DNA of 45,938 bases from a virus: the IMG/VR virus record IMGVR_UViG_3300004481_000261, positions 1 to 45,938 of that record, one strand, 5' to 3'. This document shows, in pieces, positions 5,717-36,004 of this stretch (its first letter is position 1; each line of letters begins with the position of its first letter). Both the position numbers and the translations under genes were made by a program. The notes beneath the pieces are model-generated. The model was not told where the DNA came from. It did no database searches and saw only the letters and a program-made list of their open reading frames with translations.

Positions 5717-6111
5717 TCGAGTTCTTTCATTACTTCGCTATGAGTCTTTACATTGTTGTAGAGAGGTCCACTAAGGATACGAGCTATTTGATACTTAATA
5801 CGAAAGAGTTTATTCCTATCACCTGCATGTTTCTTAACGAAGAATGCGTATTGTTCTCTATAAGCTTCAAGTTCTTGTTCGTAGACAAATAAAGGATTCT
5901 TAAGATATTCATCCCACCATTTATCTCGACCCATTGTAGTCTGTTGCTGAACGTGAACCAATTCGTGAGTCAAAAGATCTTCAGACATATCACATTGACA
6001 ATAAATCTTATCACCATAAGTAACTGCGACAGTTCTTTCATCTGCATTCGGGAATCTTTCTAATAACTTATCCCAATGTGGTGGCTTTTCTTTTAGGATT
6101 TGGTAGTTCAT
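5713..6111 (-). CDS. HExxH zinc-metallopeptidase-like protein (DUF4157-like motif)
   Basis: HELVHVQQQ matches the HExxH(V)xQ signature. The stop overlaps the TerL start (ATGA). Confidence 0.45.
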   Translation of the reverse strand: MNYQILKEKPPHWDKLLERFPNADERTVAVTYGDKIYCQCDMSEDLLTHELVHVQQQTTMGRDKWWDEYLKNPLFVYEQELEAYREQYAFFVKKHAGDRNKLFRIKYQIARILSGPLYNNVKTHSEVMKELE

Positions 6112-8609
6112 TATAGATTTGCTTGGCTTATTGATTTAATCTGTTTGACAACCTTGCCTGCAGTACTTGCAGTATTGTATGACGTTAGGTCAGTTGACCA
6201 CGTAATGTCTGGAATATCTACCACCAACTCACCCACTGAACCCGACACGGTAAGAGCTGATGTAGGTACTGCCCACACTGCCGAAGCGTCACCCAACTGC
6301 TCGAACATAATAGGTGAAGGCATACCGTCATCCCACACGTTCATTCCTGTAATTGAGTTTGTACCGTTGAAAATGTCTGCAAGGTAAAGATACGCTCCTG
6401 CGGTTGCGGTGATACCTGTTACTTTTACGGTTGCGTAGTCATCCACCGTTCCTGCGTAACTTGCTGATACTGAGAACACTTCCCACGCACCTGTTACGTT
6501 AGACATTGTGTAGGTAGAGTCTGCGGTTGTAGAGCCTGGAAGGTAAAGTTCCACCTTAGCAACACTTGTGCCAAAGGTTGCGTTCTTTTGTAGGAATCCA
6601 AGACAGTAAACAGCCGAGCTTGCTTTCGCGAGAATCTTAAATGACCACGAGAATCCTGCGGTGTTTTCTTCTGGGGTAAGACGTGCAGCGTGTGAGCCAA
6701 CGGTACGAGTTGTGGTGTCGGTAAGACTTGCACCAGAAGCCACTGCGTATCCTGTGTAGGTGTACCAAGAGTTGTTATACTGCGTTCCGCTTGTGTTCTT
6801 AAACTGCAAGAGCGTACCTGGCACTGCGTTGAGGTAGTTAGCAACAAATGCAGCGTTCCCGAAGGTGCACGTATCAAAGATTCCCTGGTTAAGCGTGTCA
6901 GTGATTGACTGCACGTCAGCAAGGTTTGTTGCTTTAGAGCCTAGAGAGCTGTCAGAGAATCTTACATTAGAGAATCCAGCACAAGCTATACCGAACGAAC
7001 GACTTGCCTCAACTTCACAGTCTGTGAATGTAAGCCCAGCACAACTCGAAATGTAGAACCCCCCGTTGTTGGTTGCTACTGCTGTTGAGCTTGAGATTCC
7101 ATAACACCTCGTAAATGTTCCGTTAGAGAACGCTGAAAGATACCATCCGCAACGGTTATTTTTAACCGCAAAACAATCTACGAGAGTTTTATTGTTTGGT
7201 TGCGTAAAGAGTGCGAAAGCTCCCGTGGAGTTTACACTAGAGTTTTGCATACAAGCGATGAGTCCAGTGTGGGTCAAAGATTCCTTTGATGTAGCCCACA
7301 CAAATCCGTGATAAAGAGGTCTGTACGCAACACTGTAATCGCATTGTCCTACTACACCCGTTGTACCAGCAATCAAGACTCCTGTTTTACTTGCAGTACT
7401 TGTTCCTACCGTTTCAAATCGTACCCAATCTGCGTCAAAGTCTCCTGCGGTAGCTGAAGCGTTTGTAAGATAGTAAGCCTGTGCGGTGTTCGTTGTGTCA
7501 ATGATGACGTTACGTTGAACATTTAGAATATGCGAGTCGGTGATGTGAGTGTACGTAAACGCTGCCTCTGCTCCACCAGCTGTATCTGAAAGCACATACG
7601 AAGTCGAGGAGTTTTTTGTTTTGATAAACTTGTTCTCGGTCTCGTTGTAGTTTGTCGCACTGTCTGTTCCAGGAGTAACCATAATCTCGTCTCCCACACT
7701 CCAATCCACTGCGGTTGAAGTTACGAGAGGTGAGGCGGCAGTTCCTACGCCAGAAACGTATTTAGTCTTCCATAGAGAGGTTGAGCTTTTTGGTGCTCCT
7801 TGAAGAATCAAACGCCCACTAGCATTGTTGCGTAGTCCGTAGTTTCCTGTGGTTCCGTTCTGGTTAAATGTGAGTCGTGCTGTGTAGGCGGCAGGGATAG
7901 GTGTTGCAACAGTTCCCATATCAAACTCACCACCACTAGCGATAGAAATTGACCCCTTAGAGGTTAGTGTTGCGGAAGCTGCGGTGTCCCATTTAAATAC
8001 TCCACCTTTCCCCACTACAAGAGCAAGCCCGATAGAACGAGCTGCAACAGCTAAGAGAGCAGTATCCGCACCGTCTCCAATACTCTGTGTGCCGTCCATC
8101 GTTACGGTAAGAGTTCCTGTATTGTTAGGGGCTTGAACCCATACGTTTTCAGTCGCACTCGGTACAACTTGACGGTCATCTGTTGCAAGAAACGCAAACG
8201 CTGTTCCTGCTGCGTCTGCTGCGGCTGCACTTGAGGTACTTGAAGCGGTACGAATCTTGAAACGGTACGCTCCTGCACCTGTTGTGGTGAATACGTACGG
8301 AGTAGGGAACTTAAAGTATACCCAACCGTTCGCAAGAACATCTGCGGCGGTAATAGTAACTGTTGCGGCGGTATCTACGGAACTTTCCTGTAAGGTAGCA
8401 GTCCAGTTTTGAGTTGTTGCGGTAGTACAAAGAACCAGAACACCTGTGCAAGCGTTCGTGGTGTTGGGTGCGGTAAAGGTTGCGGTGTACTTGTCAGAGT
8501 TCGTGACCGTGATGTTTGTTGAAGCGTGGAGTGTAGGGGTATTCGTCACCTGATTCCACGTAGAAGCGGTGTTGAAGTTTCCTGTTTGTGCTGATACTCG
8601 GTAAGCCAT
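6111..8609 (-). CDS. Tailspike / receptor-binding protein with right-handed parallel beta-helix repeats (possible depolymerase)
   Basis: 832 aa, rich in T/S/A/G. Periodic segments such as CGWYLSAFSNGTFTRCYGISSS...GGFYISSCAGLTFTDCEVEASRSFGIACAGFSNVRFSDSS are typical of PbH1 beta-helix repeats. Confidence 0.6.
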   Translation of the reverse strand: MAYRVSAQTGNFNTASTWNQVTNTPTLHASTNITVTNSDKYTATFTAPNTTNACTGVLVLCTTATTQNWTATLQESSVDTAATVTITAADVLANGWVYFKFPTPYVFTTTGAGAYRFKIRTASSTSSAAAADAAGTAFAFLATDDRQVVPSATENVWVQAPNNTGTLTVTMDGTQSIGDGADTALLAVAARSIGLALVVGKGGVFKWDTAASATLTSKGSISIASGGEFDMGTVATPIPAAYTARLTFNQNGTTGNYGLRNNASGRLILQGAPKSSTSLWKTKYVSGVGTAASPLVTSTAVDWSVGDEIMVTPGTDSATNYNETENKFIKTKNSSTSYVLSDTAGGAEAAFTYTHITDSHILNVQRNVIIDTTNTAQAYYLTNASATAGDFDADWVRFETVGTSTASKTGVLIAGTTGVVGQCDYSVAYRPLYHGFVWATSKESLTHTGLIACMQNSSVNSTGAFALFTQPNNKTLVDCFAVKNNRCGWYLSAFSNGTFTRCYGISSSTAVATNNGGFYISSCAGLTFTDCEVEASRSFGIACAGFSNVRFSDSSLGSKATNLADVQSITDTLNQGIFDTCTFGNAAFVANYLNAVPGTLLQFKNTSGTQYNNSWYTYTGYAVASGASLTDTTTRTVGSHAARLTPEENTAGFSWSFKILAKASSAVYCLGFLQKNATFGTSVAKVELYLPGSTTADSTYTMSNVTGAWEVFSVSASYAGTVDDYATVKVTGITATAGAYLYLADIFNGTNSITGMNVWDDGMPSPIMFEQLGDASAVWAVPTSALTVSGSVGELVVDIPDITWSTDLTSYNTASTAGKVVKQIKSISQANL

Positions 8610-11930: not shown

Positions 11931-12248
11931 TCACAAAAGATCGTCGATACCCTTAGGGAATTGAGTTTGTTTGTATTTTACTTTGTTTTTGAACTCTCCT
12001 CCAGTCTCATAGATCTTTGGTTCTATTCTCGTAAACTTAATCTCTTTTGGTTCTGTATTTTTAAGTTTCAGAACCATCTCATCTTTTTCTTTATTCATCT
12101 CTTCGAAGAACTCGTATTGACTTTCTAGGAGTCTAAGAGCTTCCTCATTCTTTTCTTTGGCCATTGTTCTAGCAATAACCATCATCACTTCGATGTTCTT
12201 AGACTTATCATCAAGTATTCTTTTAATTTTTCCTGAGTTGTGTAGCAT
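11931..12248 (-). CDS. Hypothetical protein (105 aa)
   Basis: ORF directly downstream of the helicase gene. E/K-rich and probably helical. Confidence 0.5.
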   Translation of the reverse strand: MLHNSGKIKRILDDKSKNIEVMMVIARTMAKEKNEEALRLLESQYEFFEEMNKEKDEMVLKLKNTEPKEIKFTRIEPKIYETGGEFKNKVKYKQTQFPKGIDDLL

Positions 12249-14839: not shown

Positions 14840-15250
14840 ATGAGACCCTTAAAATATAATTTCATTCCAGAGCATCAACTCAATAATTTTGATGATAGTG
14901 CTTCAGGAATTGAAGTGACAATCACGAAGCAAGCCTGTATTTACTTCAGTACTTTCGTTATAGGTCTCTATGAGATGAAAGGAAAGTATGTAAGAATCTT
15001 TGCAGATATTCCAAACAAATCTATCTCTTGGAGAGAGGTGAAAGGAGGCAATCTTGACTCAATTAAAAACATTCGAAAAATAACAGTGAATACTCAGGGA
15101 ACTGCAGTTCTATCGGTTAAGAAGATTCTAGAAAAGATGGAACTTAATCTTAAAGATCTGCCATTCAAAAGAGTTCCTGTTACGAAATACCAGGGTGCAT
15201 TAGACGAGGAACCCTATTACGTAATTGACTTAAGAAACTATGGTAAGTAA
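14840..15250 (+). CDS. Hypothetical early protein (136 aa)
   Basis: ORF at the head of the rightward operon. No motif recognised. Confidence 0.5.
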   Translation: MRPLKYNFIPEHQLNNFDDSASGIEVTITKQACIYFSTFVIGLYEMKGKYVRIFADIPNKSISWREVKGGNLDSIKNIRKITVNTQGTAVLSVKKILEKMELNLKDLPFKRVPVTKYQGALDEEPYYVIDLRNYGK

Positions 15251-17181: not shown

Positions 17182-17595
17182 ATGATGATACTTCCGATGC
17201 AGTATGACAGACATTCTGGACCGGATGCTGTCGGTAGTCATAAATTAACATTCTCAATAGATGAAAGTGTTGGTCTAGATGGGTTCAATCCGATGGAAAT
17301 TAAAAAAGGTACTCAATTCATTGTTACCCTAATTGAAGCGGATTCAAAAGAAGCAGAAGAATTTAGGTCAGAAACTCCAGAAGAAAGCAAAGAGAGATTC
17401 CGTAGACGAATGAACTCTCTCATAAATAAATATGCAGATCTTGGAGTTTCACGTGAGGAGTTCAAGGAGGTTTTGAAAGAAAAAGGTTTGATTGTCGAAT
17501 CAACAAAAGAATTAGACCTTGCAGGATACGCACGAGTGATAGCATTACTCAATGAAAAAATATATGAACGAGAAAAAGATACCGGAAGCAGATAA
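17182..17595 (+). CDS. Hypothetical protein (137 aa)
   Basis: Co-oriented ORF with an E/K-rich helical C-terminal half. Confidence 0.5.
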   Translation: MMILPMQYDRHSGPDAVGSHKLTFSIDESVGLDGFNPMEIKKGTQFIVTLIEADSKEAEEFRSETPEESKERFRRRMNSLINKYADLGVSREEFKEVLKEKGLIVESTKELDLAGYARVIALLNEKIYEREKDTGSR

Positions 17596-17809
17596 ATACT
17601 ATAGTCCAACTTCTATTATCCGTGAAGGATTCTTAGGAGACTGGATGAAGTCAAAGAAAACATTTGTCGATATGTTGAGGACAGAACGAGCAATCGAAGT
17701 CTTTAAACCAATCATTAAAGTTGGTCCAAAGAATACTCAATACTTCATAAAAGGACAAACACTTCTTGATATTCTAGCAGATATCGACGCAGGTACCCTA
17801 AGACTATAA
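17552..17809 (+). CDS. Hypothetical protein (85 aa; alternative start 17564)
   Basis: ORF overlapping the previous gene. No motif recognised. Confidence 0.4.
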   Translation: MKKYMNEKKIPEADKYYSPTSIIREGFLGDWMKSKKTFVDMLRTERAIEVFKPIIKVGPKNTQYFIKGQTLLDILADIDAGTLRL

Positions 17810-17811
17810 TT

Positions 17812-18447
17812 ATGGAAAAAATAAACAAAATCATTGAGAGGCAAAAAGACTTCCAACGAATTGTTGGATTCCCGATTGATTCAAATCTTGAGTCAGATCG
17901 AAATGAAATGAGTGAGAAGTATATCTTCAAACTTATAGAAGAAGCAATTGAATTACGTAAAGAATTCCCTAGTGTGATGAACCCTTGGAGTAAAAAACAA
18001 AAAGAAGTAGACTTATTACGAGTGAAAGAAGAAATGTCAGACGTTCTACTATTCTTTATCAATCTTCTTGCTACTTGGAAGTTTTCATTTGAGGAGATTC
18101 TAAATGTTATTGAAGAAGTTCAGGAAAATAACTTCAGTAAAGTTGCTGAAAAGAAACTTAAGATACTTAATGAGCAGATCTTAAACATTCCAGGGTATAT
18201 TCCACTACTCGGTTATGGTAACCCTACACCTAAACGTATTCATCTCTATAAGAGTTTTAGAGATACTCACGTAATTGATGAAACTATATCATCTCGAGAG
18301 TGTTACTATACTCACCTCGTCAAGTATCTACCACCAAATAAAAACGAACCAACGGAGGATGATATATCTTTCTGGGAACCGTTTCTCGTAGAAGAAATGA
18401 AGATCGTGACAATGAATCCTGACGTTGAAATAATAAGACACTACTAA
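17812..18447 (+). CDS. All-alpha NTP pyrophosphohydrolase (MazG / dimeric dUTPase-dCTPase superfamily) with a degenerate UDG-family-4-like C-terminal segment
   Basis: KLIEEAIELRKEFP...W...EEMSDVLLFFINL matches the EExxE...E..D metal-binding helices. The C-terminus ECYYTHLVKYLPPNKNEPTEDDISFWEPFLVEEMKIV aligns by eye with the UDG4 core (Y-I-T-N-x-V-K-C-R-P-P-x-N-R-x-P). Confidence 0.6.
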   Translation: MEKINKIIERQKDFQRIVGFPIDSNLESDRNEMSEKYIFKLIEEAIELRKEFPSVMNPWSKKQKEVDLLRVKEEMSDVLLFFINLLATWKFSFEEILNVIEEVQENNFSKVAEKKLKILNEQILNIPGYIPLLGYGNPTPKRIHLYKSFRDTHVIDETISSRECYYTHLVKYLPPNKNEPTEDDISFWEPFLVEEMKIVTMNPDVEIIRHY

Positions 18448-18448
18448 C

Positions 18449-19000
18449 ATGAAACCTATTCACATTCTCATTGACGGTTCGGACAACCTTGGTAAAACTA
18501 CAGTCATTCAATTACTTTCACGTAAGTTGAATCTGCCTGTAATTAAGATGCCAAACACTGAAAAGTTCATTGAAGCAGGAAACGTTGAAGAGTTCTCTAA
18601 GTTCTACAATGAAACCCTTGTCCAGTTTAGTGAAAGTTCATTCATAATGGATAGAGGGTTTACAAGTACTCTAGTATATTCTAAAGTATTCGCTCGAAAA
18701 AATGATGTATCTTACATCGACGGTATTCAAAATAAGTTGAAACCTACAGTATTTATTCTTACTGGACGTACTAGAAAGAATTCAGCATACGGTACATTTT
18801 ACTTCACTTCATTCAGTCAAGACCCTGTCTATTCTGATACAGAAAAAACACGAATTGACGAAGAGTTCTGTGAGTTAGCTCGTAAGAAAAGTTATCATCT
18901 CATCAGTGTTATTGGAAAATCTCCACTAGAAATATGTGATGAAATCATGTCAAAGATCGATAAACCTGTAACAAACTTCTATGGAGAATCAGACTTCTAA
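18449..19000 (+). CDS. P-loop dNMP/thymidylate-kinase-like protein
   Basis: The N-terminus IHILIDGSDNLGKTTVIQLL parallels Tmk (IVIEGLEGAGKTT). The 183-aa size is typical. Confidence 0.6.
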   Translation: MKPIHILIDGSDNLGKTTVIQLLSRKLNLPVIKMPNTEKFIEAGNVEEFSKFYNETLVQFSESSFIMDRGFTSTLVYSKVFARKNDVSYIDGIQNKLKPTVFILTGRTRKNSAYGTFYFTSFSQDPVYSDTEKTRIDEEFCELARKKSYHLISVIGKSPLEICDEIMSKIDKPVTNFYGESDF

Positions 19001-19916
19001 AAAATATATCTTAGGTGGAGGTATTTCTGGATTAGTTTTTCAGTACTACAACCCAGAGTTCACAATCATCACTCCAGACATTGGAGGAATGTATGCAAAT
19101 TCGTATGTCGTATGGTTACACCAAACTGCAGAAACTCAAAAACTTCTTAGAGATCTTGGTTACCAAAACGTAGATAAACTTCATAAGAAAAGCTATATGG
19201 GTTACTACAATCAAGGGTGGATTAGTGAACAACTATCACCTGAGATGAACCTACGACTTATTCAGAAAAAAATGAGTAAGTGGGATGAACCAGTAGATAA
19301 GACGTTCATCCCTGCTAGTTATGATATGTCTACGAGGTCAGCAAAATCAGTGAACTACATGAACGTCCTAGACGTTAACCCATCGGAAATAATTAAAAAA
19401 TTAGATGAACAACACGGAAACATCATCAATGGGATTGTTACAAAAATTACACCCACAACAATTACTTATCAATCGAATGGTGAACTTATTGAAGTTGAAT
19501 ATGACGAACTCATCTCAACTATACCTGCACCCTTCTTTTGGAAAGCCTATGGAGATGAAAGAAACTTCAGATACGAACCAATAACGAATATCATTACTAC
19601 TGTAAAGCCAAAGGAGTTCAATGATAAATTCGAAATGGTTTATTACGGAGATGAAGTATCGTTCACTCGTATCTCACATCTACAGGGTAAGTATGCGATA
19701 GAGTTTACAGGGGAAATAACTAAGGAGCAGTTTGAAGAATTGTTCCCAGAGTATCCTGTAGACAAGGTCGTACTTATTAAGCAAGGCAGAATCTTCAAAG
19801 AAGAGAATGAACCACCACAGAACAATATCACTTTTCTAGGCAGATTCGGTAAATGGGAATTCGGAATTACTACAGAGCACATTATTAAAGAAAGTATAGA
19901 ATACAAAAACAAATGA
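18981..19916 (+). CDS. FAD-binding flavoenzyme, UDP-galactopyranose-mutase (Glf)-like
   Basis: The N-terminus is a dinucleotide-binding fold, KYILGGGISGLVF...PDIGGMY. The C-terminus NITFLGRFGKWEFGITTEHIIKESIEY parallels the Glf C-terminus (LLGRLaeYrYydMhqvI). Confidence 0.5.
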   Translation: MENQTSKKYILGGGISGLVFQYYNPEFTIITPDIGGMYANSYVVWLHQTAETQKLLRDLGYQNVDKLHKKSYMGYYNQGWISEQLSPEMNLRLIQKKMSKWDEPVDKTFIPASYDMSTRSAKSVNYMNVLDVNPSEIIKKLDEQHGNIINGIVTKITPTTITYQSNGELIEVEYDELISTIPAPFFWKAYGDERNFRYEPITNIITTVKPKEFNDKFEMVYYGDEVSFTRISHLQGKYAIEFTGEITKEQFEELFPEYPVDKVVLIKQGRIFKEENEPPQNNITFLGRFGKWEFGITTEHIIKESIEYKNK

Positions 19917-20119
19917 AAACAAATAAATTGACAGATATTCAGAAGGACACACTTGACGTACTCAAAAACTTTAAGGAGTGGAAGATTGAACCAAAGATTG
20001 CAGACATTGCAGCAGAAATTGGTATCGGTTGGAGTTCAGCTCGTGATCGAGTAAATAGTCTCATTAAGATAAAGTTAGCAGTACGTAACAAGAAAACTAA
20101 GAAAGTTTCACTCAAATAA
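19913..20119 (+). CDS. Small winged-helix DNA-binding protein
   Basis: 68 aa. KIADIAAEIGIGWSSARDRVNSLIKIKL resembles a MarR/wHTH recognition region. Confidence 0.45.
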   Translation: MKTNKLTDIQKDTLDVLKNFKEWKIEPKIADIAAEIGIGWSSARDRVNSLIKIKLAVRNKKTKKVSLK

Positions 20120-20122
20120 TTT

Positions 20123-21031
20123 ATGCGAATTCTCATTACTGGTTCTAGCGGAATGATAGGTTCTGCCTTGGTTGATAAGTTGATCGAAGAAGGTCACGAT
20201 GTCATTGGACTCGACGAAGCTTATCCAATCTTTAACAATTACCAACCGACGATACTTCACGATCTTAGACATCAAATTGAAAACTCAAAGATTCAAGAAA
20301 GTGAAATGAAGTTTGACTTGATGATTCACTTGGCAGCAAATGCTAGAGTATATAACTCTGTGAAGAATCCTAAATTAAGTTACGACAATATCTCAATGAC
20401 TTACTGGGCACTTGAGTTTGCTCGTAAGAATCACATTCCGAAGTTTCTATTCGCTTCAAGTCGTGAGACTTACGGTAACGGAAATGAACTTCCTGTAGCA
20501 GAAGATAAATCATCACATCGTAAGACTGAGAGTCCATACACTGCAAGTAAAATATCAGGTGAAGCATATTGCTACGCTTATGCAGAATGTTATGGTATGG
20601 ACACTAAGATTATGAGATACTCTAACGTCTATGGTAAATACGACAACTCAGATCGGTTCGTACCCAAAGCCATCAAAAAGATGAAGGCAAATGAACCATT
20701 CGAAATCTGGGGAGATGGTAAGTCAATGTCATTCACTTATATTGATGATTGTATTGATGGTACAATGACTCTCATAAATAGATGGGATGAAGCTAAGGAT
20801 CGTGAGTACAACATTGCATCAGATACTCAAGATAGTCTCATTAGTGTAGCAGAGAGAATCAAGAAAGAACTTTTCTCATCTTCAGGTATTCTTATTACTG
20901 ATAACCTCGTAGGTGAAGTTATGAACTTTCAAGCAGATATTACAAAAATGAAGAACCTTGGTTGGACCCCGAAAGTCTCAATCGAAGAAGGAATAAATAA
21001 ATCAATCAACTGGTATGCCTCACAATCCTAA
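20123..21031 (+). CDS. NAD-dependent nucleotide-sugar epimerase/dehydratase (extended SDR)
   Basis: ILITGSSGMIGSAL provides GxxGxxG, ASSRETYG the catalytic Ser/Thr, and YTASKISGE the YxxxK motif. Confidence 0.8.
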   Translation: MRILITGSSGMIGSALVDKLIEEGHDVIGLDEAYPIFNNYQPTILHDLRHQIENSKIQESEMKFDLMIHLAANARVYNSVKNPKLSYDNISMTYWALEFARKNHIPKFLFASSRETYGNGNELPVAEDKSSHRKTESPYTASKISGEAYCYAYAECYGMDTKIMRYSNVYGKYDNSDRFVPKAIKKMKANEPFEIWGDGKSMSFTYIDDCIDGTMTLINRWDEAKDREYNIASDTQDSLISVAERIKKELFSSSGILITDNLVGEVMNFQADITKMKNLGWTPKVSIEEGINKSINWYASQS

Positions 21032-22079
21032 CCTCGAACCAAAACACCACGCATTTAGAGTACTCTTTGGTCAGAAACCATTGACGAAGTTCAAGGACTA
21101 CCGCAAAGCAATTAAGGTAGAACTTCTATCACCAGAACCTAAGGAAGCAATGATGAAGAGAATCTATGATTTTGTAAAAGCTACTTGGTCAGAAGATGGA
21201 AGAGAATCAGAACGTGCAACAAAAGAAGAAATGGTAGATGCTATGAACCAGATGCTATCAGGAAAAGCACTCGGACTTGGTCTAGAGACTATCAACTTCA
21301 CTTTTAGAATTTCAGGAATCACTCGTGTAGATACTCACCAGATTGTTCGTCAGAGAATCGGTGTTACGTTCAGCCAACAGTGTACCGGAGATCGTATGAT
21401 GCACCACAATGATATTCTTACTGAAGAGTGTATCGCAGGTAGTAGTTCAATCAACGACTTCATCGAAGCAACTCTATGTAACAAAGTTACTTATGCTGAT
21501 ATGATTGACCGTGGTATTTCTATCCAAGCTGCTAGAACTATTCTTCCTCATAACTTGGAGACATTTATCTTCATGAATACTAACCTCATGACATTGATGT
21601 TCTTCCACCAGAAAAGAATTGATGATGGTAGTCAAACTTGGCAGATAAATGAAATTGCTCAGCAGATGGCTGATGTAGTCTGTGAAGCTTATCCAGAGCT
21701 CAAGGAGGTATTCGAAAAGAACAAAAAGAGGTTTAAGTTCCAGAAGGAAGCAAGTGCTGATCGTAAGAATCTTTTCTCTACAGGTCTCTATGTACCTAAA
21801 GATGATGAGTTTGAGTACCACGAACGTGACTTCCTTTACGCTAAAAAGAAGGAGGAAATGCACTTCACAAATACTCCAATCTCAACGAAATACTTCTGGG
21901 GACTTACTGAAGTTACTGCAGAGGAATACAATCTTATTCAGAATCTCTATCTAGCAAATAACAAGAGAGTTCATGAAGAACAACCGTCAAACCTAGACAT
22001 CTTCACTCTTAATAGCGATACAAACAAGAAGATAAATAAAATACTCGACAATGCTAAATCAGAAACCACAGGAATTTGA
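21015..22079 (+). CDS. Divergent flavin-dependent thymidylate-synthase (ThyX)-like protein
   Basis: AARTILPHNLETFIFMNTNLMTLMFFHQKRIDD matches the ThyX core (aR.lLP....t....t.N.R.l.hf..lR). The ThyX signature RHRxxSxxxxSxR is altered to RQRIGVTFSQQCTGDR. At 354 aa it is longer than typical ThyX. Confidence 0.6.
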   Translation: MPHNPNLEPKHHAFRVLFGQKPLTKFKDYRKAIKVELLSPEPKEAMMKRIYDFVKATWSEDGRESERATKEEMVDAMNQMLSGKALGLGLETINFTFRISGITRVDTHQIVRQRIGVTFSQQCTGDRMMHHNDILTEECIAGSSSINDFIEATLCNKVTYADMIDRGISIQAARTILPHNLETFIFMNTNLMTLMFFHQKRIDDGSQTWQINEIAQQMADVVCEAYPELKEVFEKNKKRFKFQKEASADRKNLFSTGLYVPKDDEFEYHERDFLYAKKKEEMHFTNTPISTKYFWGLTEVTAEEYNLIQNLYLANNKRVHEEQPSNLDIFTLNSDTNKKINKILDNAKSETTGI

Positions 22080-22569
22080 TACCTTCGTTGATGCCCTAAA
22101 GGCTACAATCACAGAAAAAGGTTTTAAGCAGGTAGACAATAGACTTAACCGTACTACTCAGAACCTATCTAGCCACTTCATTGAGATTAGTAATAGCAAA
22201 GTTCTAGAATGGTTACGTCGGGAAGAAGTTCTTGAAAAATATAAGGATGATTCTAAACGAATGTATTCTTCTTTCAAGAAAGCAATAGTTGAAGCAAAGA
22301 AAGACCCTAACTCTCGTAGACTAATGGTCTTCAATGATAGTCGGTTCAATGAAATCTATCAATGTTTTACTTCATTCCACTTTGTCTATACTAAAAGGAA
22401 TGAGTTTGACATGATAGTATACCAACGATCATCAGATCTTATTAAACTTAAAGACGACCTAGTTTTCTTTGCCAACCAGATGAAAAAGTTTGAACGAGGA
22501 ACTGACTATTATGTAACGAAACTTATCGTTATTTATGGCAGTATACATTACGAGATAGATGTGGTATAA
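22051..22569 (+). CDS. Miniature ThyA-family protein (thymidylate synthase / pyrimidine hydroxymethylase-like, 172 aa)
   Basis: KKDPNSRRLMVFN parallels DPDSRRIIVSAWN. QCFTSFHFVY parallels PCHAFFQFYV, which holds the catalytic Cys. IVYQRSSDL parallels LYQRSCDV. YGSIHYE parallels GGDTHLY. It is about 90 aa shorter than E. coli ThyA. Confidence 0.6.
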   Translation: MLNQKPQEFDTFVDALKATITEKGFKQVDNRLNRTTQNLSSHFIEISNSKVLEWLRREEVLEKYKDDSKRMYSSFKKAIVEAKKDPNSRRLMVFNDSRFNEIYQCFTSFHFVYTKRNEFDMIVYQRSSDLIKLKDDLVFFANQMKKFERGTDYYVTKLIVIYGSIHYEIDVV

Positions 22570-22579
22570 TTAAAGTATT

Positions 22580-24940
22580 ATGAAACAAAAAATGAGTGTG
22601 GTAAACACCTGGACTCGGTTCGATGACGTATATGTCTCATACTACGATTCGAATGGAGAAAGACAATCAACGAAAGTAAAAACAAAATGGTACTTTGTTA
22701 TTCACAACAACACTCTTGAGCAGGCATCTGAACTTCTTAAAACTTCTAGATATGTCTATGAGTTAGAAACAGGTGAAGAATATACTAAAATCTATTGTCA
22801 GAATTCAGAGACCTATAAGAAAACTGACCTAGTTGTTCTCTTAGAGAAAAATGGAATAGTAACCTTCGAAGGTGACTTAGCTACAGATAAGAGATGGTTC
22901 ATTGATAAGCAGGTAGAAATATCAGATCGTTATGAGAAACTGTACTTCGACATCGAGACTGATGACTCTCTGGAAAAAATTGAAATTGGACGAGATCGAA
23001 TTCTTAGTTTTGCTGCAATAGATGGCCACGGTAAGAAGTTCTTCATTATCTTAGAAGAACATACAGATGAAGCTGAAGCAAAAATGCTTGCCAAGGTTCT
23101 AAAGTTGATGGGTAAGTACGACATCATTCTTGGATGGAATAGTTCACTTTTTGACATTCCATATATCCGTGAAAGAGCATTCAAACTAAATACTCAAGAA
23201 AATGAACTACGTAAACTCTACTATGACAATGTTCGAACTGTAGCTAACTACGATCTTCTTAAGAGATTCAGACACATCTTCCGTTTCGATAGTCATATTA
23301 AGAAGTTCAATCTCAACTTCGTTAGTAACTACTTCATCGGTAAGGGAAAGGTAGATCACACTGGTGATAAGATTATCGATCTATGGAATAACAAAAAAGA
23401 TCTACTAAAAGAATACAACATTGAAGATGCTATCCTCGTAAAAGAATTAGATGAAAAACTTGGAGTGTCAGACATGATGATTCGACAATGTCAATGGTGT
23501 GGAGTTCCGGCAAGTCAGTTCGGTCTCTATGCTATCATTGATGCTTACATTCTAAAGATTGCTCATAGTGTCGGTAAGTATGGTAAGACATCTAATGCAG
23601 CAATTAGAGAACGGAATAAGAGTAATGTAAAGGGGAATCTAAACCCGGATGATGTTACAACTGATGAGAATAAATATCTAGGTGGATTGGTTCTAGACCC
23701 AGTAGTCGGAAAATATGACAGAGTCTATACGTTCGACTTCAAGAGTCTTTATCCCTCGATGATGAGAACCTCAAATATCGGTTACGACACTCTCAGATAC
23801 GTAGCAGATGACAACTGTATCATAAATCCAGGTACGAATGAACGACCTAGAAGGAGTGGACAAATCATTGAGACTTTCTTCGATAAGACTCCATCAGTTA
23901 TCAATCTAGCAATCACGAATCTTCTGACAAAAAGAACTGAATACAAGAAGTTAAAACTCAAGATGATCGAAGAAGGAACTAATCACGGACCATTATGGGA
24001 TCGAGTTGTCAGTGATGAGATTATCGTTAAGGAACTTGCTAACTCAACTTACGGTATTATGGGTCTAGAGTATGGAAGATACTTCGATGTAGATATTGCA
24101 GAGAGTATCACGTTATTCGGTCAATGGATTATTTCTTGGTCAAAAGACTACTTTGACAGTCTTGGTTATACTGTCATCTATGGAGATACTGACTCAGTCT
24201 TTGTATCGGTAGGTGATAGAATCTTAGACCTTGAAGAAGAACTTAGAAAGTTCCACGACGAACTTGGTAGAGTATTGAAGGAAGAATACAATGTCGATCA
24301 GAGTTACATTGTTCTTGAGTTCGACAAACAATACGAATCACTTATTCTTGTAGCAAAAAAGAGTTACGTAGGTCACGTGGTAAACATCGAAGGTAAGAAA
24401 ACTGATGATATTTACGCAAGAGGTATAGAATACGGAAAAAAGAATACGTTCAGTTTCGCCGCAGTTAAACAGAAAGAACTAGTCGAAGGGTTACTTCATA
24501 AGAAACTTGTAACATCTGAAGAAGTTATCGAATGGGTTAAAAAGACTAAAGAAGAGTTCAATTCGAAAGACTTTACAGTCGATGAACTAACTCTTACGCA
24601 GAAAGTAGGTAAACCGATCTCACAATATACTGGTAAAACTCAACCACTACATGTTCGCCTAGCTAAGGTGTTACAAGAAAAAACTAATCAAGTATTTACA
24701 AACGTAGAGATTGATTATGTAATTACTGATGCAAGTAAGGGTATGAACGGAGTACTTGCTGAAGACTATGATGGTACGTTTGCTAGAGACTATTACTGGA
24801 CAAACAAAACTCAACCGATTCTTGAAAGAATTACAGAAGTAGCATTTCCTGGTGTAGAGATCTTTGAGTTACCACCTAAGAAACCCCGCAAGACTAAGGA
24901 AAAAGACGTACAACCTTCACTTCTTGACTTAATACACTAG
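22580..24940 (+). CDS. polB: Family-B DNA polymerase
   Basis: Exo I is LYFDIETDD, Exo II is GWNSSLFDIPYI, and Exo III is YNIEDAILV. Motif A is DFKSLYPSMM, motif B is KELANSTYG, and motif C is YGDTDSVFV. Confidence 0.95.
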   Translation: MKQKMSVVNTWTRFDDVYVSYYDSNGERQSTKVKTKWYFVIHNNTLEQASELLKTSRYVYELETGEEYTKIYCQNSETYKKTDLVVLLEKNGIVTFEGDLATDKRWFIDKQVEISDRYEKLYFDIETDDSLEKIEIGRDRILSFAAIDGHGKKFFIILEEHTDEAEAKMLAKVLKLMGKYDIILGWNSSLFDIPYIRERAFKLNTQENELRKLYYDNVRTVANYDLLKRFRHIFRFDSHIKKFNLNFVSNYFIGKGKVDHTGDKIIDLWNNKKDLLKEYNIEDAILVKELDEKLGVSDMMIRQCQWCGVPASQFGLYAIIDAYILKIAHSVGKYGKTSNAAIRERNKSNVKGNLNPDDVTTDENKYLGGLVLDPVVGKYDRVYTFDFKSLYPSMMRTSNIGYDTLRYVADDNCIINPGTNERPRRSGQIIETFFDKTPSVINLAITNLLTKRTEYKKLKLKMIEEGTNHGPLWDRVVSDEIIVKELANSTYGIMGLEYGRYFDVDIAESITLFGQWIISWSKDYFDSLGYTVIYGDTDSVFVSVGDRILDLEEELRKFHDELGRVLKEEYNVDQSYIVLEFDKQYESLILVAKKSYVGHVVNIEGKKTDDIYARGIEYGKKNTFSFAAVKQKELVEGLLHKKLVTSEEVIEWVKKTKEEFNSKDFTVDELTLTQKVGKPISQYTGKTQPLHVRLAKVLQEKTNQVFTNVEIDYVITDASKGMNGVLAEDYDGTFARDYYWTNKTQPILERITEVAFPGVEIFELPPKKPRKTKEKDVQPSLLDLIH

Positions 24941-25217: not shown

Positions 25218-25391
25218 ATGTACAATACAAAAATAAAAACTAGCATTTCTTTAGTAGAAAACAAAGGTGAAAAACTTATACAGATCTACCAAAGTACTTC
25301 ATATAATAAAAATGGTAGAAATGCATGGGACAGACAAGCAGTTTATCTTGATGCAAAACAACTAAAAAAAATTAACAAACTTACAAAATAA
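25218..25391 (+). CDS. Small hypothetical protein (57 aa, below the ORF-track cutoff)
   Basis: My translation is MYNTKIKTSISLVENKGEKLIQIYQSTSYNKNGRNAWDRQAVYLDAKQLKKINKLTK. It fills an otherwise empty gap and vaguely resembles PC4-like ssDNA-binding proteins. Confidence 0.4.
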   Translation: MYNTKIKTSISLVENKGEKLIQIYQSTSYNKNGRNAWDRQAVYLDAKQLKKINKLTK

Positions 25392-25392
25392 T

Positions 25393-25575
25393 ATGAAACT
25401 ATTCACAATGATGGTTGGAGGATTCTGGGCATTCATTATTCAATCAGTATTCTCAAACGTAGACAAGACAATTACGACAACGATGTCAGATGCCTACTTT
25501 GCTATTCTACAACTTGTAGCAATTGCAATTGCAGGATTTGTTACTATTATCATTCTTACCAACAAAGAAATCTAA
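25393..25575 (+). CDS. Small membrane protein (60 aa, two hydrophobic helices)
   Basis: Hydrophobic segments are LFTMMVGGFWAFIIQSVF and FAILQLVAIAIAGFVTIIIL. Confidence 0.5.
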   Translation: MKLFTMMVGGFWAFIIQSVFSNVDKTITTTMSDAYFAILQLVAIAIAGFVTIIILTNKEI

Positions 25576-25674
25576 ATATATGGAAAATACTACAAAGTAA
25601 TCAAAGATACATTTATCTGGGAAGAAGGTGCAATACTAAAATACGACAGAAATCTCGGAACAACTGGAGGTTAC

Positions 25675-25845
25675 ATGCCTATCGAAAGCGTATGGAACAA
25701 AGTAGAACACAATAACGAATATATTTCTAGTGAGATTATCGAAAACAATCCAGAATGGTTCGAAAGAGTCTATCAAAGTAATGTCGATAAACTAATGTTC
25801 TTATCAGTCGAAGCTTTTAAAGCTGCAGTACATTTTGTAAAATAA
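25675..25845 (+). CDS. Hypothetical protein (56 aa from ATG; the frame is open from 25576)
   Basis: The frame has no stop for the 33 codons upstream of this ATG. See findings. Confidence 0.4.
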   Translation: MPIESVWNKVEHNNEYISSEIIENNPEWFERVYQSNVDKLMFLSVEAFKAAVHFVK

Positions 25846-26588: not shown

Positions 26589-26744
26589 ATGAAAAAACTA
26601 CTTTGTAAACTTTTTGGGCATAAATATGATGCTATTGAAAAGTGTGTATTTGGGATAGAAATGAGCGCAATGAATAGAGAAGCTCTAAAGCCTGAAATTT
26701 CTTGCCTACGTTGTGGCTTAACAATAAAAGGATATAAAGATTAA
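26589..26744 (+). CDS. Mini-protein (51 aa) with N-terminal LLCKLFGHKY motif
   Basis: My translation is MKKLLCKLFGHKYDAIEKCVFGIEMSAMNREALKPEISCLRCGLTIKGYKD. It resembles DUF1660-type prophage mini-proteins (CxLFGHKW). Confidence 0.4.
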   Translation: MKKLLCKLFGHKYDAIEKCVFGIEMSAMNREALKPEISCLRCGLTIKGYKD

Positions 26745-26751
26745 AATAGAT

Positions 26752-26871
26752 ATGAACCTCATCTGCTTAATTCTCGGTCACGACTGGTACGGAAGACCGC
26801 CAAGACATTTCAAGTTTTGTACCCGATGTAATAAAATTAAAGACTTACGAATATATGACCAAAGAAAATAA
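26752..26871 (+). CDS. Mini-protein (39 aa), paralogue of 26589-26744
   Basis: My translation is MNLICLILGHDWYGRPPRHFKFCTRCNKIKDLRIYDQRK. It is preceded by the same junction string, TAAAATAGATATGA. Confidence 0.35.
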   Translation: MNLICLILGHDWYGRPPRHFKFCTRCNKIKDLRIYDQRK

Positions 26872-27217
26872 AGATCTACAGAGATACAAAGATGCTGTCT
26901 GGGACTATCTCTTAGAGCATAGTGATATTACTGAAGGTGGTTCTTTGTTTGTGAAGTTTCATACAAAAAGTAGGTCAGTATTCGAAGGACATGTTACTGC
27001 TAGAATAAAAGGTTACCATCGAGGGGACCCTAAAGCTAGACAACATTTCTTAGAACAAAAATCCATAGAACATGTTATAATTAAAAAATCAAAGAAAGAG
27101 AAATGGAAAGCAGGAAAGGAAGAACGTAAGAAGATACTAGATGATGTTAAGTTTGAGAACGATATAAGAAAATATCCACAAATTATTAGAATACTTTTAA
27201 GATCTGTAAGAAAATGA
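26855..27217 (+). CDS. Hypothetical basic protein (120 aa)
   Basis: Co-oriented ORF with a K/R-rich C-terminal half. Confidence 0.5.
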   Translation: MTKENKDLQRYKDAVWDYLLEHSDITEGGSLFVKFHTKSRSVFEGHVTARIKGYHRGDPKARQHFLEQKSIEHVIIKKSKKEKWKAGKEERKKILDDVKFENDIRKYPQIIRILLRSVRK

Positions 27218-28062
27218 AAATAGGATTCATCGGTCAAGGTTGGATAGGAAAGAACTACGCAGACAATTATGAGGCTAGAGGATTTGACACTGTACGTTAT
27301 TCTCTTGAACCAGAATACGTAGGAAATAAAGATAAAATTAGTGAGTGTGACATTACTTTCATTGCGGTACCAACACCGTCAACAGCGACGACTGTAGACG
27401 TAACCGCGGTGGAATCTGCATTGAAATGTATCGGCATTGGTCGTGTTGCAGTCATTAAGTCGACAGTACCTCCAGAAACTACACAGAAGTTACACAAGAA
27501 GTTTCCACGAATTATGCTTTTTCATTCTCCTGAATTCCTCAGAGAGAAGTTTGCTAGACAGGATGTAGATAAACCTGATCGAAACATCATAGGTATTCCC
27601 TATCTCAGGACGGTTGGTGAAAGAACTGCATATGAATTTGTTGCAATGAAGATTCTTAAGACTCTACCTGAAGCAACTCACGATAGAATTATTTCCTCAA
27701 CTGAGTCAGAACTCATTAAGTATGCTGGAAATGTTTTTCTTACGATGAAGGTTATTTATGCAAACATGCTATACGACTTAAGTGTTGGTTTGAATATCGA
27801 TTATGATAATGTTTCTGAGATTATGAGTTTAGACCCTCGTATCGGTGATTCACATCTTACAGTAAATGAAGGAGGTAGAGGTGCTGGTGGGCATTGTTTC
27901 ATAAAAGACTTAGAGGCATTTCGTCAGATCTATGACAAAAATACAAATAGTTTAAAAGGCCGTAACGTCATCAATGCTTTAATTATGAAAAACAACGAGT
28001 TACTAAGAAATTCAAAAAAAGACTTAGACTTACTCGAACAAATATATGGTAAAAGAATGTAG
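27214..28062 (+). CDS. UDP-glucose/GDP-mannose dehydrogenase-family protein, short form
   Basis: The N-terminus MKIGFIGQGWIG is a Rossmann fold. The active-site region LDPRIGDSHL...GRGAGGHCFIKDLEAF parallels E. coli Ugd (LDPRIGNHY...GYGGYCLPKD). At 282 aa it appears to lack the C-terminal UDP-binding domain. Confidence 0.7.
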   Translation: MKIGFIGQGWIGKNYADNYEARGFDTVRYSLEPEYVGNKDKISECDITFIAVPTPSTATTVDVTAVESALKCIGIGRVAVIKSTVPPETTQKLHKKFPRIMLFHSPEFLREKFARQDVDKPDRNIIGIPYLRTVGERTAYEFVAMKILKTLPEATHDRIISSTESELIKYAGNVFLTMKVIYANMLYDLSVGLNIDYDNVSEIMSLDPRIGDSHLTVNEGGRGAGGHCFIKDLEAFRQIYDKNTNSLKGRNVINALIMKNNELLRNSKKDLDLLEQIYGKRM

Positions 28063-28252
28063 AGATTGCCGAAAGAGATTGAATATAAGTAAGTTCGGGC
28101 GAAGAAAGAATCCTCAAAAAACTCACACAGTTTACTACAAATCTATCTGTAAGAAATGTCTTGTCATTCGTACGCAGGAATGGGTTAAAAAGAACAGAAA
28201 CAAACATAACGAATATCATAAAAACTATTACCATGCGACCCATTCCAAGTAA
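28046..28252 (+). CDS. Small Cys-rich basic protein (68 aa)
   Basis: CRDC...CKKC gives a zinc-ribbon pattern. Confidence 0.45.
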   Translation: MVKECRDCRKRLNISKFGRRKNPQKTHTVYYKSICKKCLVIRTQEWVKKNRNKHNEYHKNYYHATHSK

Positions 28253-28547
28253 ACTAAGAAAAGAAATGAGTGAGGACCCTTACTACTCTATCTGTACTAG
28301 AAAGGATAGTCATTGTAGTGGAAGAATCACATGGGAACATGCGTGGATATATGCAGGAAGACAGATAAATGAAAAATGGGCAATCATACCTCTATGTTGG
28401 CATCACCATCTAGGAACAGGTCTTAGAAAGAATATCAATCAACTCATTTCACTACGTAGAGCAACTCTAGAAGATCTGATGAAATATCCTAAGAAAGACT
28501 GGCAACAGGAAATGGAAACACTTAAACACGAAACAAATGAGTATTAA
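28233..28547 (+). CDS. HNH-like nuclease (Ref/DUF968-like)
   Basis: CSGRITWEHAWIYAGRQINEKWAIIPLCWHHH fits the H...(D/E)xWxxIPLCxxHH pattern. I chose the internal ATG at 28233 as the start. It lies adjacent to RusA. Confidence 0.5.
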   Translation: MRPIPSKLRKEMSEDPYYSICTRKDSHCSGRITWEHAWIYAGRQINEKWAIIPLCWHHHLGTGLRKNINQLISLRRATLEDLMKYPKKDWQQEMETLKHETNEY

Positions 28548-35308: not shown

Positions 35309-36004
35309 TTATTTTTTCTGAATTAGTTCGAAATACTTTGAACGAATAGTTCTAGATGTTGCTCCTGTTACAGTAATTGTTTGAGTAAACATGCCTAGAC
35401 TTGTATCTAAAGGATTCATGAGGTTTGTAGTGATTTGTCCTTTTTCTATACCATCTACTAAAAACTTTACACAAACTCCTGGGATATATCTAAACTCCAA
35501 CTTGTAGTAAGTATTTGCAGAGTAAGTCTGTAATGAAACACTTGTAGTTCCTGAAACGTTTGAAGAAGAACCTTTGATTGTACCATTCAGGAATTGGAAT
35601 CCAATTTCACCATCTGCTGATTGCATCGTAATAACACTTGCATCAATATCAGTCGTAGCAGTTACTTTAGAAAGAACTCTAAATCTTAGTTCTTTGTTCG
35701 CTACAAGTCTGTTATTTGCTGCTCCTGATAGAAGAACGTAATCAGTACCTGTCGCAGTAGTAACATAAATACCGTCAGAATCTACATCACCTGTTAGGAG
35801 AGTTCCAGCGACAACATATCCTGCAATAGACTCAAAGTTACTAGAGTAGTAGTAATACGTATCCCAAACTACATCTAGAATGTTGTCCTGTATTGTCTGT
35901 ACTAAAATATCTTTAGAAGGAACATCAAGGTTACGGTTAACCCCTGGATTTGTTTCCAGTCGAGTTAGTCTATTCTTGATGTCAGCAATTTCGGTTGGGT
36001 TCAT
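35309..36004 (-). CDS. Structural protein, function unknown (231 aa)
   Basis: Late-block ORF with a short N-terminal helical segment followed by a beta-rich region. Confidence 0.45.
   Translation of the reverse strand: MNPTEIADIKNRLTRLETNPGVNRNLDVPSKDILVQTIQDNILDVVWDTYYYYSSNFESIAGYVVAGTLLTGDVDSDGIYVTTATGTDYVLLSGAANNRLVANKELRFRVLSKVTATTDIDASVITMQSADGEIGFQFLNGTIKGSSSNVSGTTSVSLQTYSANTYYKLEFRYIPGVCVKFLVDGIEKGQITTNLMNPLDTSLGMFTQTITVTGATSRTIRSKYFELIQKK

Follow-up and report, generated by a model that had tools for sequence, protein, structure and literature searches.

A conserved, probable deoxypyrimidine gene module with an extended ThyX-like and a minimal ThyA-like protein beside the DNA polymerase of uncultured phages

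Directly upstream of the DNA polymerase gene of an uncultured phage lies a block of seven genes that raises a simple question: which deoxypyrimidine nucleotide do their products make, and by which chemistry? The block is found in the IMG/VR virus record IMGVR_UViG_3300004481_000261, whose 45,938 nucleotides were analysed over their whole length and are called the window here. It encodes an extended protein resembling the flavin-dependent thymidylate synthase ThyX, followed by a very short relative of the classical thymidylate synthase ThyA (mini-ThyA), and the original prediction was a modified pyrimidine bearing a sugar other than glucose. How sensitive phage DNA is to restriction enzymes, to CRISPR and to sequencing chemistries is determined by its base modifications, and these have also yielded useful enzymes. 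To our knowledge, all known pre-replicative pyrimidine modifications begin with a full-length ThyA homologue. We see an about even chance that five genes of the block form a flavin-centred module which acts on the deoxypyrimidine pool and supplies the adjacent polymerase, the mini-ThyA probably making a C5-modified deoxycytidine monophosphate (dCMP) and the ThyX-like protein making thymidine monophosphate (dTMP). Should a modified base be its product, the module would add an enzymatic route not known before and perhaps also a new base; otherwise it would show a self-contained, flavin-dependent way for phages to make thymidylate.

The seven open reading frames (ORFs) lie on the plus strand at 17812-22569 and are followed by the family-B DNA polymerase (PolB) gene at 22580-24940. 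Their coordinates, and those of a Ugd-like ORF further downstream, were reproduced from the ORF list. The spacing across the cluster ranges only from -29 to +10 nt, with neighbours abutting or overlapping, so that the seven genes and PolB form a single tightly packed block on one strand. Family labels were scored with Pfam, PHROGs and NCBIfam. The features are as follows:

17812..18447, plus strand: all-alpha nucleoside triphosphate (NTP) pyrophosphohydrolase with a remnant resembling uracil-DNA glycosylase (UDG) (dUTPase_2, PHROG 173)
18449..19000, plus strand: Tmk-like P-loop deoxynucleoside monophosphate (dNMP) kinase (Thymidylate_kin below threshold, PHROG 761)
18981..19916, plus strand: Glf-like flavoprotein binding flavin adenine dinucleotide (FAD), of the superfamily of UDP-galactopyranose mutase (UGM), protoporphyrinogen oxidase (PPOX) and amine oxidase (GxGxxG, AlphaFold2 (AF2) model, Foldseek)
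19913..20119, plus strand: small winged-helix (wHTH) protein (LexA_DNA_bind, E=0.0096, weak)
20123..21031, plus strand: extended short-chain dehydrogenase/reductase (SDR) of the nucleoside diphosphate (NDP)-sugar epimerase/dehydratase/decarboxylase type (Pfam Epimerase, 9.4e-51)
21015..22079, plus strand: extended ThyX-like flavoprotein (Pfam Thy1, 1.3e-22)
22051..22569, plus strand: mini-ThyA, 172 aa (Pfam PF00303, AF2 model, Foldseek)
22580..24940, plus strand: family-B DNA polymerase (Pfam DNA_pol_B, 4.8e-52)
27214..28062, plus strand: short Ugd-like NAD-dependent dehydrogenase (PF03721 and PF00984)

The labels given in the original prediction held to different degrees. Those of the SDR, the Thy1/ThyX domain, PolB and the Ugd-like domains are solid, and those of the ThyA-like protein and the NTP pyrophosphohydrolase (NTPase) are marginal. 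The Tmk-like and Glf-like proteins fall below threshold, and the match of the wHTH protein is weak.

The strongest indication that these genes belong together comes from other phages. Contigs were fetched for homologues of the mini-ThyA, the flavoprotein and the ThyX-like protein. A mini-ThyA profile yielded a single locus in IMG/VR, and the ThyX-like profile was more productive: scanned against IMG/VR, JGI metagenomes and GTDB genomes, it led to 55 loci, which were searched with local hidden Markov models and are cited here by their L numbers. A module of five genes, encoding the NTPase, the Tmk-like kinase, the flavoprotein, the ThyX-like protein and the mini-ThyA, was found in about 27 distinct uncultured phage lineages, and always next to a DNA polymerase gene; the metagenomes come from groundwater, soil, lakes and brine. 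The order begins with the NTPase (usually fused to a UDG-like domain) and the Tmk-like kinase; the flavoprotein follows, then a variable slot, and after it the ThyX-like protein, the mini-ThyA and the DNA polymerase. Most lineages have PolB as the polymerase, and L006 and L007 have PolA. The mini-ThyA gene directly follows the ThyX-like gene in 20 of the 21 lineages with downstream DNA present, and the flavoprotein gene precedes it in all lineages with upstream DNA present. Because the same order beside a DNA polymerase recurs in about 27 lineages, the arrangement is not chance. No description of the combination of ThyX-like protein, mini-ThyA and flavoprotein was found in the literature on ThyX-based hypermodification or on Geobacillus phage GR1, a cultured relative discussed below.

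In most lineages, nothing lies in the variable slot that separates the flavoprotein gene from the ThyX-like gene. It holds an SDR in seven of the 27 (window, L005, L010/12, L017, L018/19, L020/21 and L027) and wHTH homologues in L005, L017 (within a 192-aa ORF), L018/19 and L034, with a similar small ORF in L011. A RibF-like protein resembling FAD synthetases and cytidylyltransferases (GTFDGIHEGH) occupies the slot of L008 and L011 (L011:8541-9990, L008:10914-11426), together with an FkbM-family methyltransferase in L011. A TylF-type methyltransferase gene follows a more distant ThyX-like gene in L014.

The mini-ThyA gives the clearest hint at the substrate. Its match to Pfam PF00303 is marginal (28.6 bits vs a cut-off of 24.3). 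The AF2 model, with 27 homologues in the alignment, has a predicted local distance difference test (pLDDT) score of 94, and Foldseek retrieved thymidylate synthases and the T4 dCMP hydroxymethylase only (probability 1.0, query TM-score (TMq) 0.68-0.73); at the level of the model, the thymidylate synthase (TS) fold was confirmed. Since all homologues have 161-216 aa, the short length is a property of the family and not a truncation. The catalytic cysteine and the nucleotide-binding residues of the TS superfamily are present. C105, invariant in the 27 homologues, corresponds to the catalytic C146 of the E. coli enzyme, and S88-R89, equally invariant in them, to its R126/R127 region. R126, S127, D129 and H166 are likewise invariant in them and correspond to R166, S167, D169 and H207. 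The protein has none of the marks of a thymidylate synthase proper, namely Asn177, a full folate domain and the closing C-terminus. Of the region that contacts folate (E. coli 35-110), about 45 residues are missing, and the protein ends right after HxY (E. coli H207-Y209), without the 55 residues of the closing C-terminus (alignment read by eye). Against the NCBIfam TS equivalogs, 20-25 bits were reached vs cut-offs of 108-405.

In place of N177, the mini-ThyA has an invariant aspartate, Asp136. This alignment was obtained both by a HMMER profile search of the PDB and by hhalign, Asp is found at the position in every member, distant ones included, and the best L. casei entry for the profile is the N229D mutant. 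In E. coli numbering, N177D denotes a dCMP substrate (Lee et al. 2026, PMC13326640). According to the same study, an acidic residue at L143 denotes hydroxymethylation and a hydrophobic one methyl transfer, and D169N serves to identify the flavin-dependent 5-hydroxy-dCMP synthases, those of RB69, DLP3 and RL38J1 (PMC13326640). D169N is not seen in the window family, in which Asp129 is invariant. As a control of the method, the DLP3-like TS homologue of Acinetobacter phage Bhz15, called a 5-hydroxy-dCMP synthase from the context of its arabinosyl-5-hydroxycytosine cluster only, shows Asn at the D169 position (MRSQN), as the rule predicts. With Asp at both the N177 and the D169 positions, the mini-ThyA thus has the signature of a dCMP substrate and lacks that of the 5-hydroxylases. 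Three positions before the cysteine, at the putative equivalent of L143, the window clade has I/V and other clades have D/E/N/T, the loop alignment being ambiguous.

The ThyX-like protein encoded just upstream is clearly a Thy1-domain protein (Pfam PF02511, 80.9 bits vs a cut-off of 24.8), but it does not reach equivalog level for thyX (NCBIfam TIGR02170, 60.5 bits vs 87.9). Canonical ThyX, such as TM0449 of Thermotoga maritima, has about 220 aa. The window protein has about 350 aa, with conserved extensions of about 50 aa at the N-terminus and about 115 aa at the C-terminus around the Thy1 domain, and it is always paired with a mini-ThyA. Its family comprises at least 145 clusters, with lengths of 305-382 aa, mostly 340-365, and 55-83% identity to the window protein. 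The substrate loop is remodelled: the ThyX motif RHRxxSxxxxSxRY is replaced by RQRIGVTFSQQCTGDR, with a 3-residue insert and RQR for RHR, and C123 is invariant in the family. In a tentative alignment with the T. maritima sequence, an invariant lysine, K84, takes the position of H53. The equivalents of R147 and R174, both of which contact the uracil and phosphate, are retained as R174 and R201. Like canonical ThyX, the protein is expected to depend on FAD. The idea that its C-terminal extension is the missing C-terminus of the mini-ThyA, as in a split or permuted TS, was rejected (hhalign probability 0.1%).

Are the remaining core genes compatible with a cytosine nucleotide? In the product of the first gene, residues ~1-125 are borderline for Pfam dUTPase_2 PF08761 (22.8 bits vs 22.9) and match PHROG 173 at 8e-8. 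The metal ligands E44, E47, E74 and D77 are invariant in the alignment of relatives, and this part is predicted to be an all-alpha NTPase of the dimeric dUTPase, dCTPase or MazG type. The relatives have 272-283 aa and consist of the NTPase fused to a full UDG-superfamily domain. The UDG motifs GQNPG and HPA are present in L001, L002 and L006-L008, and both are absent from the window and L005. Lacking motif A (GxxPG) and motif B (HPS/A), the C-terminal part of the window protein falls outside the UDG superfamily and is probably a truncated, degenerate UDG-like remnant. The GQNPG motif (L001:6520-7371, L002:3537-4361, L006-L008) is nearer to the GxNPG of MUG/SMUG-type enzymes than to the GEAPG of family 4. 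The kinase, not the NTPase, is the fusion partner of the UDG domain in L013 and L014. In L016 the domain stands alone, and the NTPase is fused to the flavoprotein. As UDG, NTPase, kinase and flavoprotein are reshuffled in fusions between lineages, the parts are indicated, on domain architecture, to share one pathway.

The kinase stays below the thresholds of Pfam PF02223 (Thymidylate_kin, 25 bits vs 27, 1.8e-5) and NCBIfam TIGR00041 (21.5 bits vs 83) and matches PHROG 761 at 1e-10. It has a P-loop (DGSDNLGKTT) and the motif DRG..S..VY. Among 50,697 cultured-phage records, only 124 matches were found, in phages that are T4-like by genus name (Acinetobacter, Escherichia, Klebsiella and related hosts). 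Going by the row annotations and the one region that was opened, that of phage Bhz15, the matched protein is the Tmk-like kinase of the arabinosyl-5-hydroxycytosine cluster. In Bhz15 its gene sits between glycosyltransferases and the TS homologue, and the protein is 31% identical to the window kinase over 110 aa (E = 6e-10). The original proposal of a coherent deoxypyrimidine module following the T4 logic of NTPase, TS homologue and kinase is strengthened by these kinase relatives in cytosine-hypermodification clusters and by Asp136 at the N177 position.

The third core gene had been read as one of three sugar genes forming a pathway. Its product, the flavoprotein, shares several traits with UGM. 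The N-terminal FAD Rossmann motif GxGxxG (residues 12-17) is invariant in the family. The family profile retrieves UGMs alone from the PDB, but at E~0.1; in this match, the invariant R230 is aligned with the catalytic arginine R327 of AfUGM, and the C-terminal GRFxxW motif falls on that of UGM. It is probably UGM-derived. A genuine UDP-galactopyranose mutase was not accepted, and on these profiles and models the protein cannot be claimed as one. It scores 17 bits vs the cut-off of 26.3 for Pfam GLF (PF03275), and neither NCBIfam nor a single-sequence search of the PDB gave a match. Foldseek ranked PPOX, UGM, amine oxidase and renalase about equally (TMq 0.6-0.66) and did not single out UGM. 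With 311 aa, it is ~70-200 aa shorter than UGMs (370-510 aa) and departs from their three-domain architecture. In the AF2 model (pLDDT 91, low at residues 110-130), only two short helices, within residues 83-145, stand in for the uridine-binding helical domain.

Moreover, unlike those of UGM, the partners and fusions of the flavoprotein are deoxypyrimidine enzymes and not galactofuranosyltransferases. A search at E<=0.001 gave 634 representatives of the family. Fusions to dUTPase_2-type NTPases occur in at least 12 of its 28 longer members, and single fusions to a dCMP deaminase, an NT5C deoxypyrimidine nucleotidase and a GT-A glycosyltransferase occur. The last of these, P0219 (532 aa), combines an N-terminal GT-A glycosyltransferase of the Gly_transf_sug or TcdA-TcdB type with the flavoprotein and is the sole direct tie between the flavoprotein family and sugar transfer. 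No homologue was found in cultured phages by tblastn. By gene context, the flavoprotein is best regarded as a core member of the nucleotide module, whereas the SDR and the Ugd-like protein occur in only seven and three of the 27 lineages, which separates the three supposed sugar genes.

A cultured relative of the central pair exists in the thermophilic Geobacillus phage GR1 (L009, OK896991.1, 7400-10424). Its ThyX-like protein is 34% identical to that of the window, both extensions included, and the gene is followed by that of a mini-ThyA-like protein of 151 aa, which has Asn (QRSSN) at the D169 position and Asp at the N177 position. The GR1 mini-ThyA would therefore bear the published signature of a 5-hydroxy-dCMP synthase. 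Upstream of the pair are genes for an NfsB-like NAD(P)H flavin reductase, a P-loop kinase and a 460-aa glycosyltransferase, and an HD protein and a nucleoside 2-deoxyribosyltransferase-like protein also flank it. Because GR1 has a flavin reductase where the other phages have the UGM-derived flavoprotein, the gene order suggests a redox or flavin-supply role for this slot. No report on the DNA composition of GR1 was found in the literature.

Taken in sequence, the steps of such a module could be as follows. The all-alpha NTPase, whose metal ligands are in place, would hydrolyse dCTP and/or dUTP to the monophosphate. The thiol of Cys105 of the mini-ThyA would then add to C6 of a cytosine nucleotide, a substrate proposed because Asp136 stands at the N177 position, and a C5 substituent would be installed. 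By the published rules, the product would be a one-carbon derivative, 5-methyl- or 5-hydroxymethyl-dCMP, and not 5-hydroxy-dCMP, because Asp is kept at the D169 position. Since the folate-binding parts are largely missing, the reaction may be assisted by flavin. The ThyX-like protein would make dTMP, or a related C5-modified deoxyuridine monophosphate (dUMP), with FAD. Its gene lies directly upstream of that of the mini-ThyA and often overlaps it, and the two proteins might work as a complex. The flavoprotein may be the flavin or redox partner of the pair, or may act on the same nucleotides, and would not be a maker of UDP-galactofuranose (UDP-Galf). A partner role is suggested because of its fusions and because an NfsB-like flavin reductase takes its position in GR1. 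The Tmk-like kinase would finally phosphorylate the modified dNMP, a role assigned because of its family and its relatives in cytosine-hypermodification clusters. The module would act on precursors before replication and then hand over to the adjacent polymerase. The GR1 pair and the FAD-synthetase-like inserts of L008 and L011 also speak for this reading.

This scheme resembles that of T4, in which the dCTPase gp56, the dCMP hydroxymethylase gp42, the dNMP kinase gp1 and the thymidylate synthase Td work together. Both schemes combine an all-alpha NTPase and a dNMP kinase with a separate thymidylate synthase and a TS-fold enzyme that has Asp at the N177 position, and both would act on the nucleotide pool beside replication genes. 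The window differs in that its TS-fold enzyme has only 172 aa and lacks most folate-binding elements, that its candidate thymidylate synthase is a divergent flavin-dependent ThyX-like protein, that a UGM-derived flavoprotein is obligatory and that no DNA glycosyltransferase was found in the scanned ORFs. The 5-hydroxy-dCMP synthase clusters of RB69, DLP3 and RL38J1 share with it N177D, a Tmk-like kinase of the same family, the involvement of flavin and embedded sugar-nucleotide genes, including a UGM in RL38J1 (PMC13326640; He et al. 2026, Nat Chem Biol). In contrast to these clusters, the window enzyme keeps Asp at D169, the position at which its GR1 homologue has D169N, and the window has no arabinose-5-phosphate isomerase, AfhE/AfhF-type genes or glycosyltransferases. 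As no tblastn match was obtained in cultured phages, the window flavoprotein is not an orthologue of the RL38J1 UGM.

Several points weigh against a C5-modified dCMP as the product. The rules for substrate and product were derived from full-length enzymes and may not transfer to the mini-ThyA, because about 45 residues of the folate region and 55 of the C-terminus are missing; moreover, its L143-equivalent position is ambiguous. The alignment of the substrate loop of the ThyX-like protein is uncertain. A further point comes from the DNA itself. Besides the window, L005, L001, L006, L009 and L016 strongly avoid short palindromes. CATG is strongly avoided in the window (62 observed vs 162 expected, z -10), and so is GATC (102 vs 191, z -8.4). 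The avoided sites vary by lineage: in L006, GATC occurs 0 times vs 43 expected, and in L002, L008 and L012 no site is avoided. Palindrome avoidance that differs from lineage to lineage usually points to restriction pressure still at work, and fully modified phages such as T4 do not have it. Because the avoidance of CATG and GATC persists, the DNA seems to be still under restriction pressure, which would be unexpected if every C were modified, and the avoidance is soft evidence against a complete, broadly protective replacement of cytosine. The differences between lineages suggest continuing selection on these phages by distinct host restriction systems.

Could the module simply make thymidylate? 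The dUTPase-type, UDG, Tmk, dCMP deaminase and ThyX domains would equally fit dTMP synthesis and uracil exclusion in a phage with canonical DNA. Here, the NTPase would yield dUMP and keep dUTP low, UDG would remove uracil, the ThyX-like protein would make dTMP with the flavoprotein as its reductase, and the kinase would make dTDP. The mini-ThyA would be an auxiliary or regulatory subunit with a TS fold, and the SDR and Ugd-like genes would serve surface glycans. Partner and fusion domains that all centre on dUMP and dTMP, the AT-rich genome, the retained uracil-contacting arginines of ThyX, the NfsB-like reductase gene adjoining the GR1 ThyX-like gene, the FAD-synthetase-like inserts in the module and the persisting site avoidance are all in keeping with this. 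Nevertheless, a second TS-fold enzyme that is always encoded alongside and has an intact catalytic cysteine, phosphate-binding arginines and an invariant Asp at the N177 position would be left without explanation. In known phages, a second TS homologue with the catalytic cysteine has been a dNMP-modifying enzyme (PMC8989533, PMC13326640). Furthermore, the ThyX-like protein, with its remodelled motif and conserved extensions, lies below the thyX cut-off, and the kinase resembles those in the clusters of cytosine-modifying phages. We regard an ordinary thymidylate supply as a serious alternative, if on balance the less likely one.

A bolder version of the C5-modification reading is that the ThyX-like protein, the mini-ThyA and the flavoprotein together form a previously unknown flavin-dependent system that adds a C5 group to a deoxycytidine nucleotide, or another pyrimidine nucleotide, by a chemistry foreign to both TS families, with the variable slot diversifying the product. 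For example, one carbon or an oxygen carried by flavin may be transferred onto a nucleotide that the cysteine of the minimal TS holds and activates. We advance this only tentatively, as a rather unlikely outcome.

The proposal that the pyrimidine bears a uronic acid, a pentose or a furanose fares worst. In it, the Ugd-like protein, the SDR and the Glf-like protein would form one nucleotide-sugar pathway, for instance from UDP-glucose via UDP-glucuronate (UDP-GlcA) to UDP-xylose or UDP-L-arabinose and on to a furanose form, or to UDP-Galf, and a glycosyltransferase that escaped recognition would move the sugar onto the modified base. Precedents exist. TS-homologue pathways decorated with arabinofuranose or galactose, in the form of arabinofuranosyl- and galactosyl-5-hydroxycytosine, and a phage UGM in Pootjesviridae have been published (PMC13326640). 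The base of RB69, assumed in the original prediction to be arabinosyl-hydroxymethylcytosine, is arabinosyl-5-hydroxycytosine (PMC13326640). In addition, the sugar genes are embedded in the module, as SDR-ThyX-miniThyA-Ugd in L021 and Ugd-ThyX in L035, glycosyltransferases are encoded nearby in L001 and GR1, and the P0219 fusion joins a glycosyltransferase to the flavoprotein. Neither a glycosyltransferase nor an aGPT-Pplase nor a 5-hydroxymethyldeoxyuridine (5-hmdU) DNA kinase was detected with Pfam and PHROGs in the scanned ORFs of the window, however, including 14840-15250, 17182-17595 and 26855-27217, which had been named as glycosyltransferase candidates. Short ORFs (<110 aa) at 11931-12248, 25218-25845, 26589-26744, 37136-37453 and 43238-43543 were unscanned, or gave no match where scanned. 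No glycosyltransferase is conserved with the module across lineages.

The sugar-nucleotide enzymes themselves do not form a coherent pathway either. The SDR is a well-supported extended SDR (PF01370, 9.4e-51; PHROG 540, 6e-71), with GSSGMIGS for NAD binding and YTASK as the catalytic YxxxK in its translation. Its best PDB matches, UDP-glucuronate decarboxylase, UDP-GlcA 4-epimerase and GalE, are about equal at ~1e-31, and it reaches no NCBIfam equivalog (best TIGR01181, 148 bits vs 365). The Ugd-like protein (282 aa) has only the N-terminal PF03721 and central PF00984 domains (5e-18 and 5e-17). It lacks the C-terminal UDP-binding domain (PF03720) and with it the three-domain architecture of a UDP-glucose 6-dehydrogenase, but keeps the catalytic cysteine in GGHCF; all NCBIfam scores are below cut-off. 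This short form of ~275-282 aa is conserved. In the three lineages that have it, the gene lies 5 kb downstream (window), after the mini-ThyA gene (L021) or before the ThyX-like gene (L035). Both families also occur as a pair, ~30% identical, in the Kyanoviridae phage C48C1, beside PolB and primase genes and without a TS module. This pair (PHROG 540 and PHROG 9148) likewise sits beside replication genes and has a short Ugd-like protein. Unlike it, the genes of the window lineage are split around the TS pair and PolB, and some module relatives have them inside the pyrimidine module. In the cyanophage literature, SDR/Ugd-type genes are treated as cell-surface modification genes. Because the pair also occurs in C48C1 without the TS module, the SDR and Ugd-like genes look like a mobile accessory cassette, whose embedding in the module is suggestive but unspecific. 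They may diversify the modification, but an independent auxiliary pair for sugar nucleotides is no less likely. With a below-threshold, shortened Glf-like protein usually fused to nucleotide enzymes, a Ugd-like protein without its UDP-binding domain, two of the three genes missing from most module lineages and no transferase, we consider a sugar-bearing pyrimidine improbable.

The setting of the module is that of a complete phage genome. An exact repeat of 70 bp is present at both ends of the window (1-70 = 45869-45938), and the window is the entire JGI contig; the genome is therefore complete at ~45.87 kb, from a circular assembly or with a short terminal repeat. A structural arm with terminase, capsid and tail genes and a replication arm with genes for a DnaB-like helicase, a PD-(D/E)XK nuclease, RusA and PolB can be distinguished. 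GC content is 35-39% along most of the length. Across the 50,697 cultured-phage records, no similarity at DNA level was found, and PolB is less than 28% identical to that of any cultured phage.

No recognisable Shine-Dalgarno sequence precedes any of the eight gene starts of the cluster (17790-22580), a pattern typical of Bacteroidota and their phages. Only one 5.9-kb contig of a metagenome-assembled genome bears the module (L054) and was binned as Sphingobacterium, which is too weak for a host assignment and was not used. In the structural arm, two proteins on the minus strand are encoded in GC-rich stretches (0.42-0.47 vs ~0.37). The first (6111-8609, 832 aa) has a weak match to right-handed beta-helix proteins and is a candidate tailspike or depolymerase, and the second (37455-38747, 430 aa) has a Laminin_G_3/ConA-like lectin domain; both point to a polysaccharide receptor. 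A papain-like cysteine peptidase with a peptidoglycan-binding domain (36001-37134, minus strand) likely represents an uncommon kind of endolysin. The ORFs 28046-28252 and 28161-28547, which lie downstream of the Ugd-like gene, overlap on the plus strand, and either frame may be expressed. The product of the former, a Cys-rich protein of 68 aa, has weak PHROG matches of the HNH, endonuclease VII and Lar-like types.

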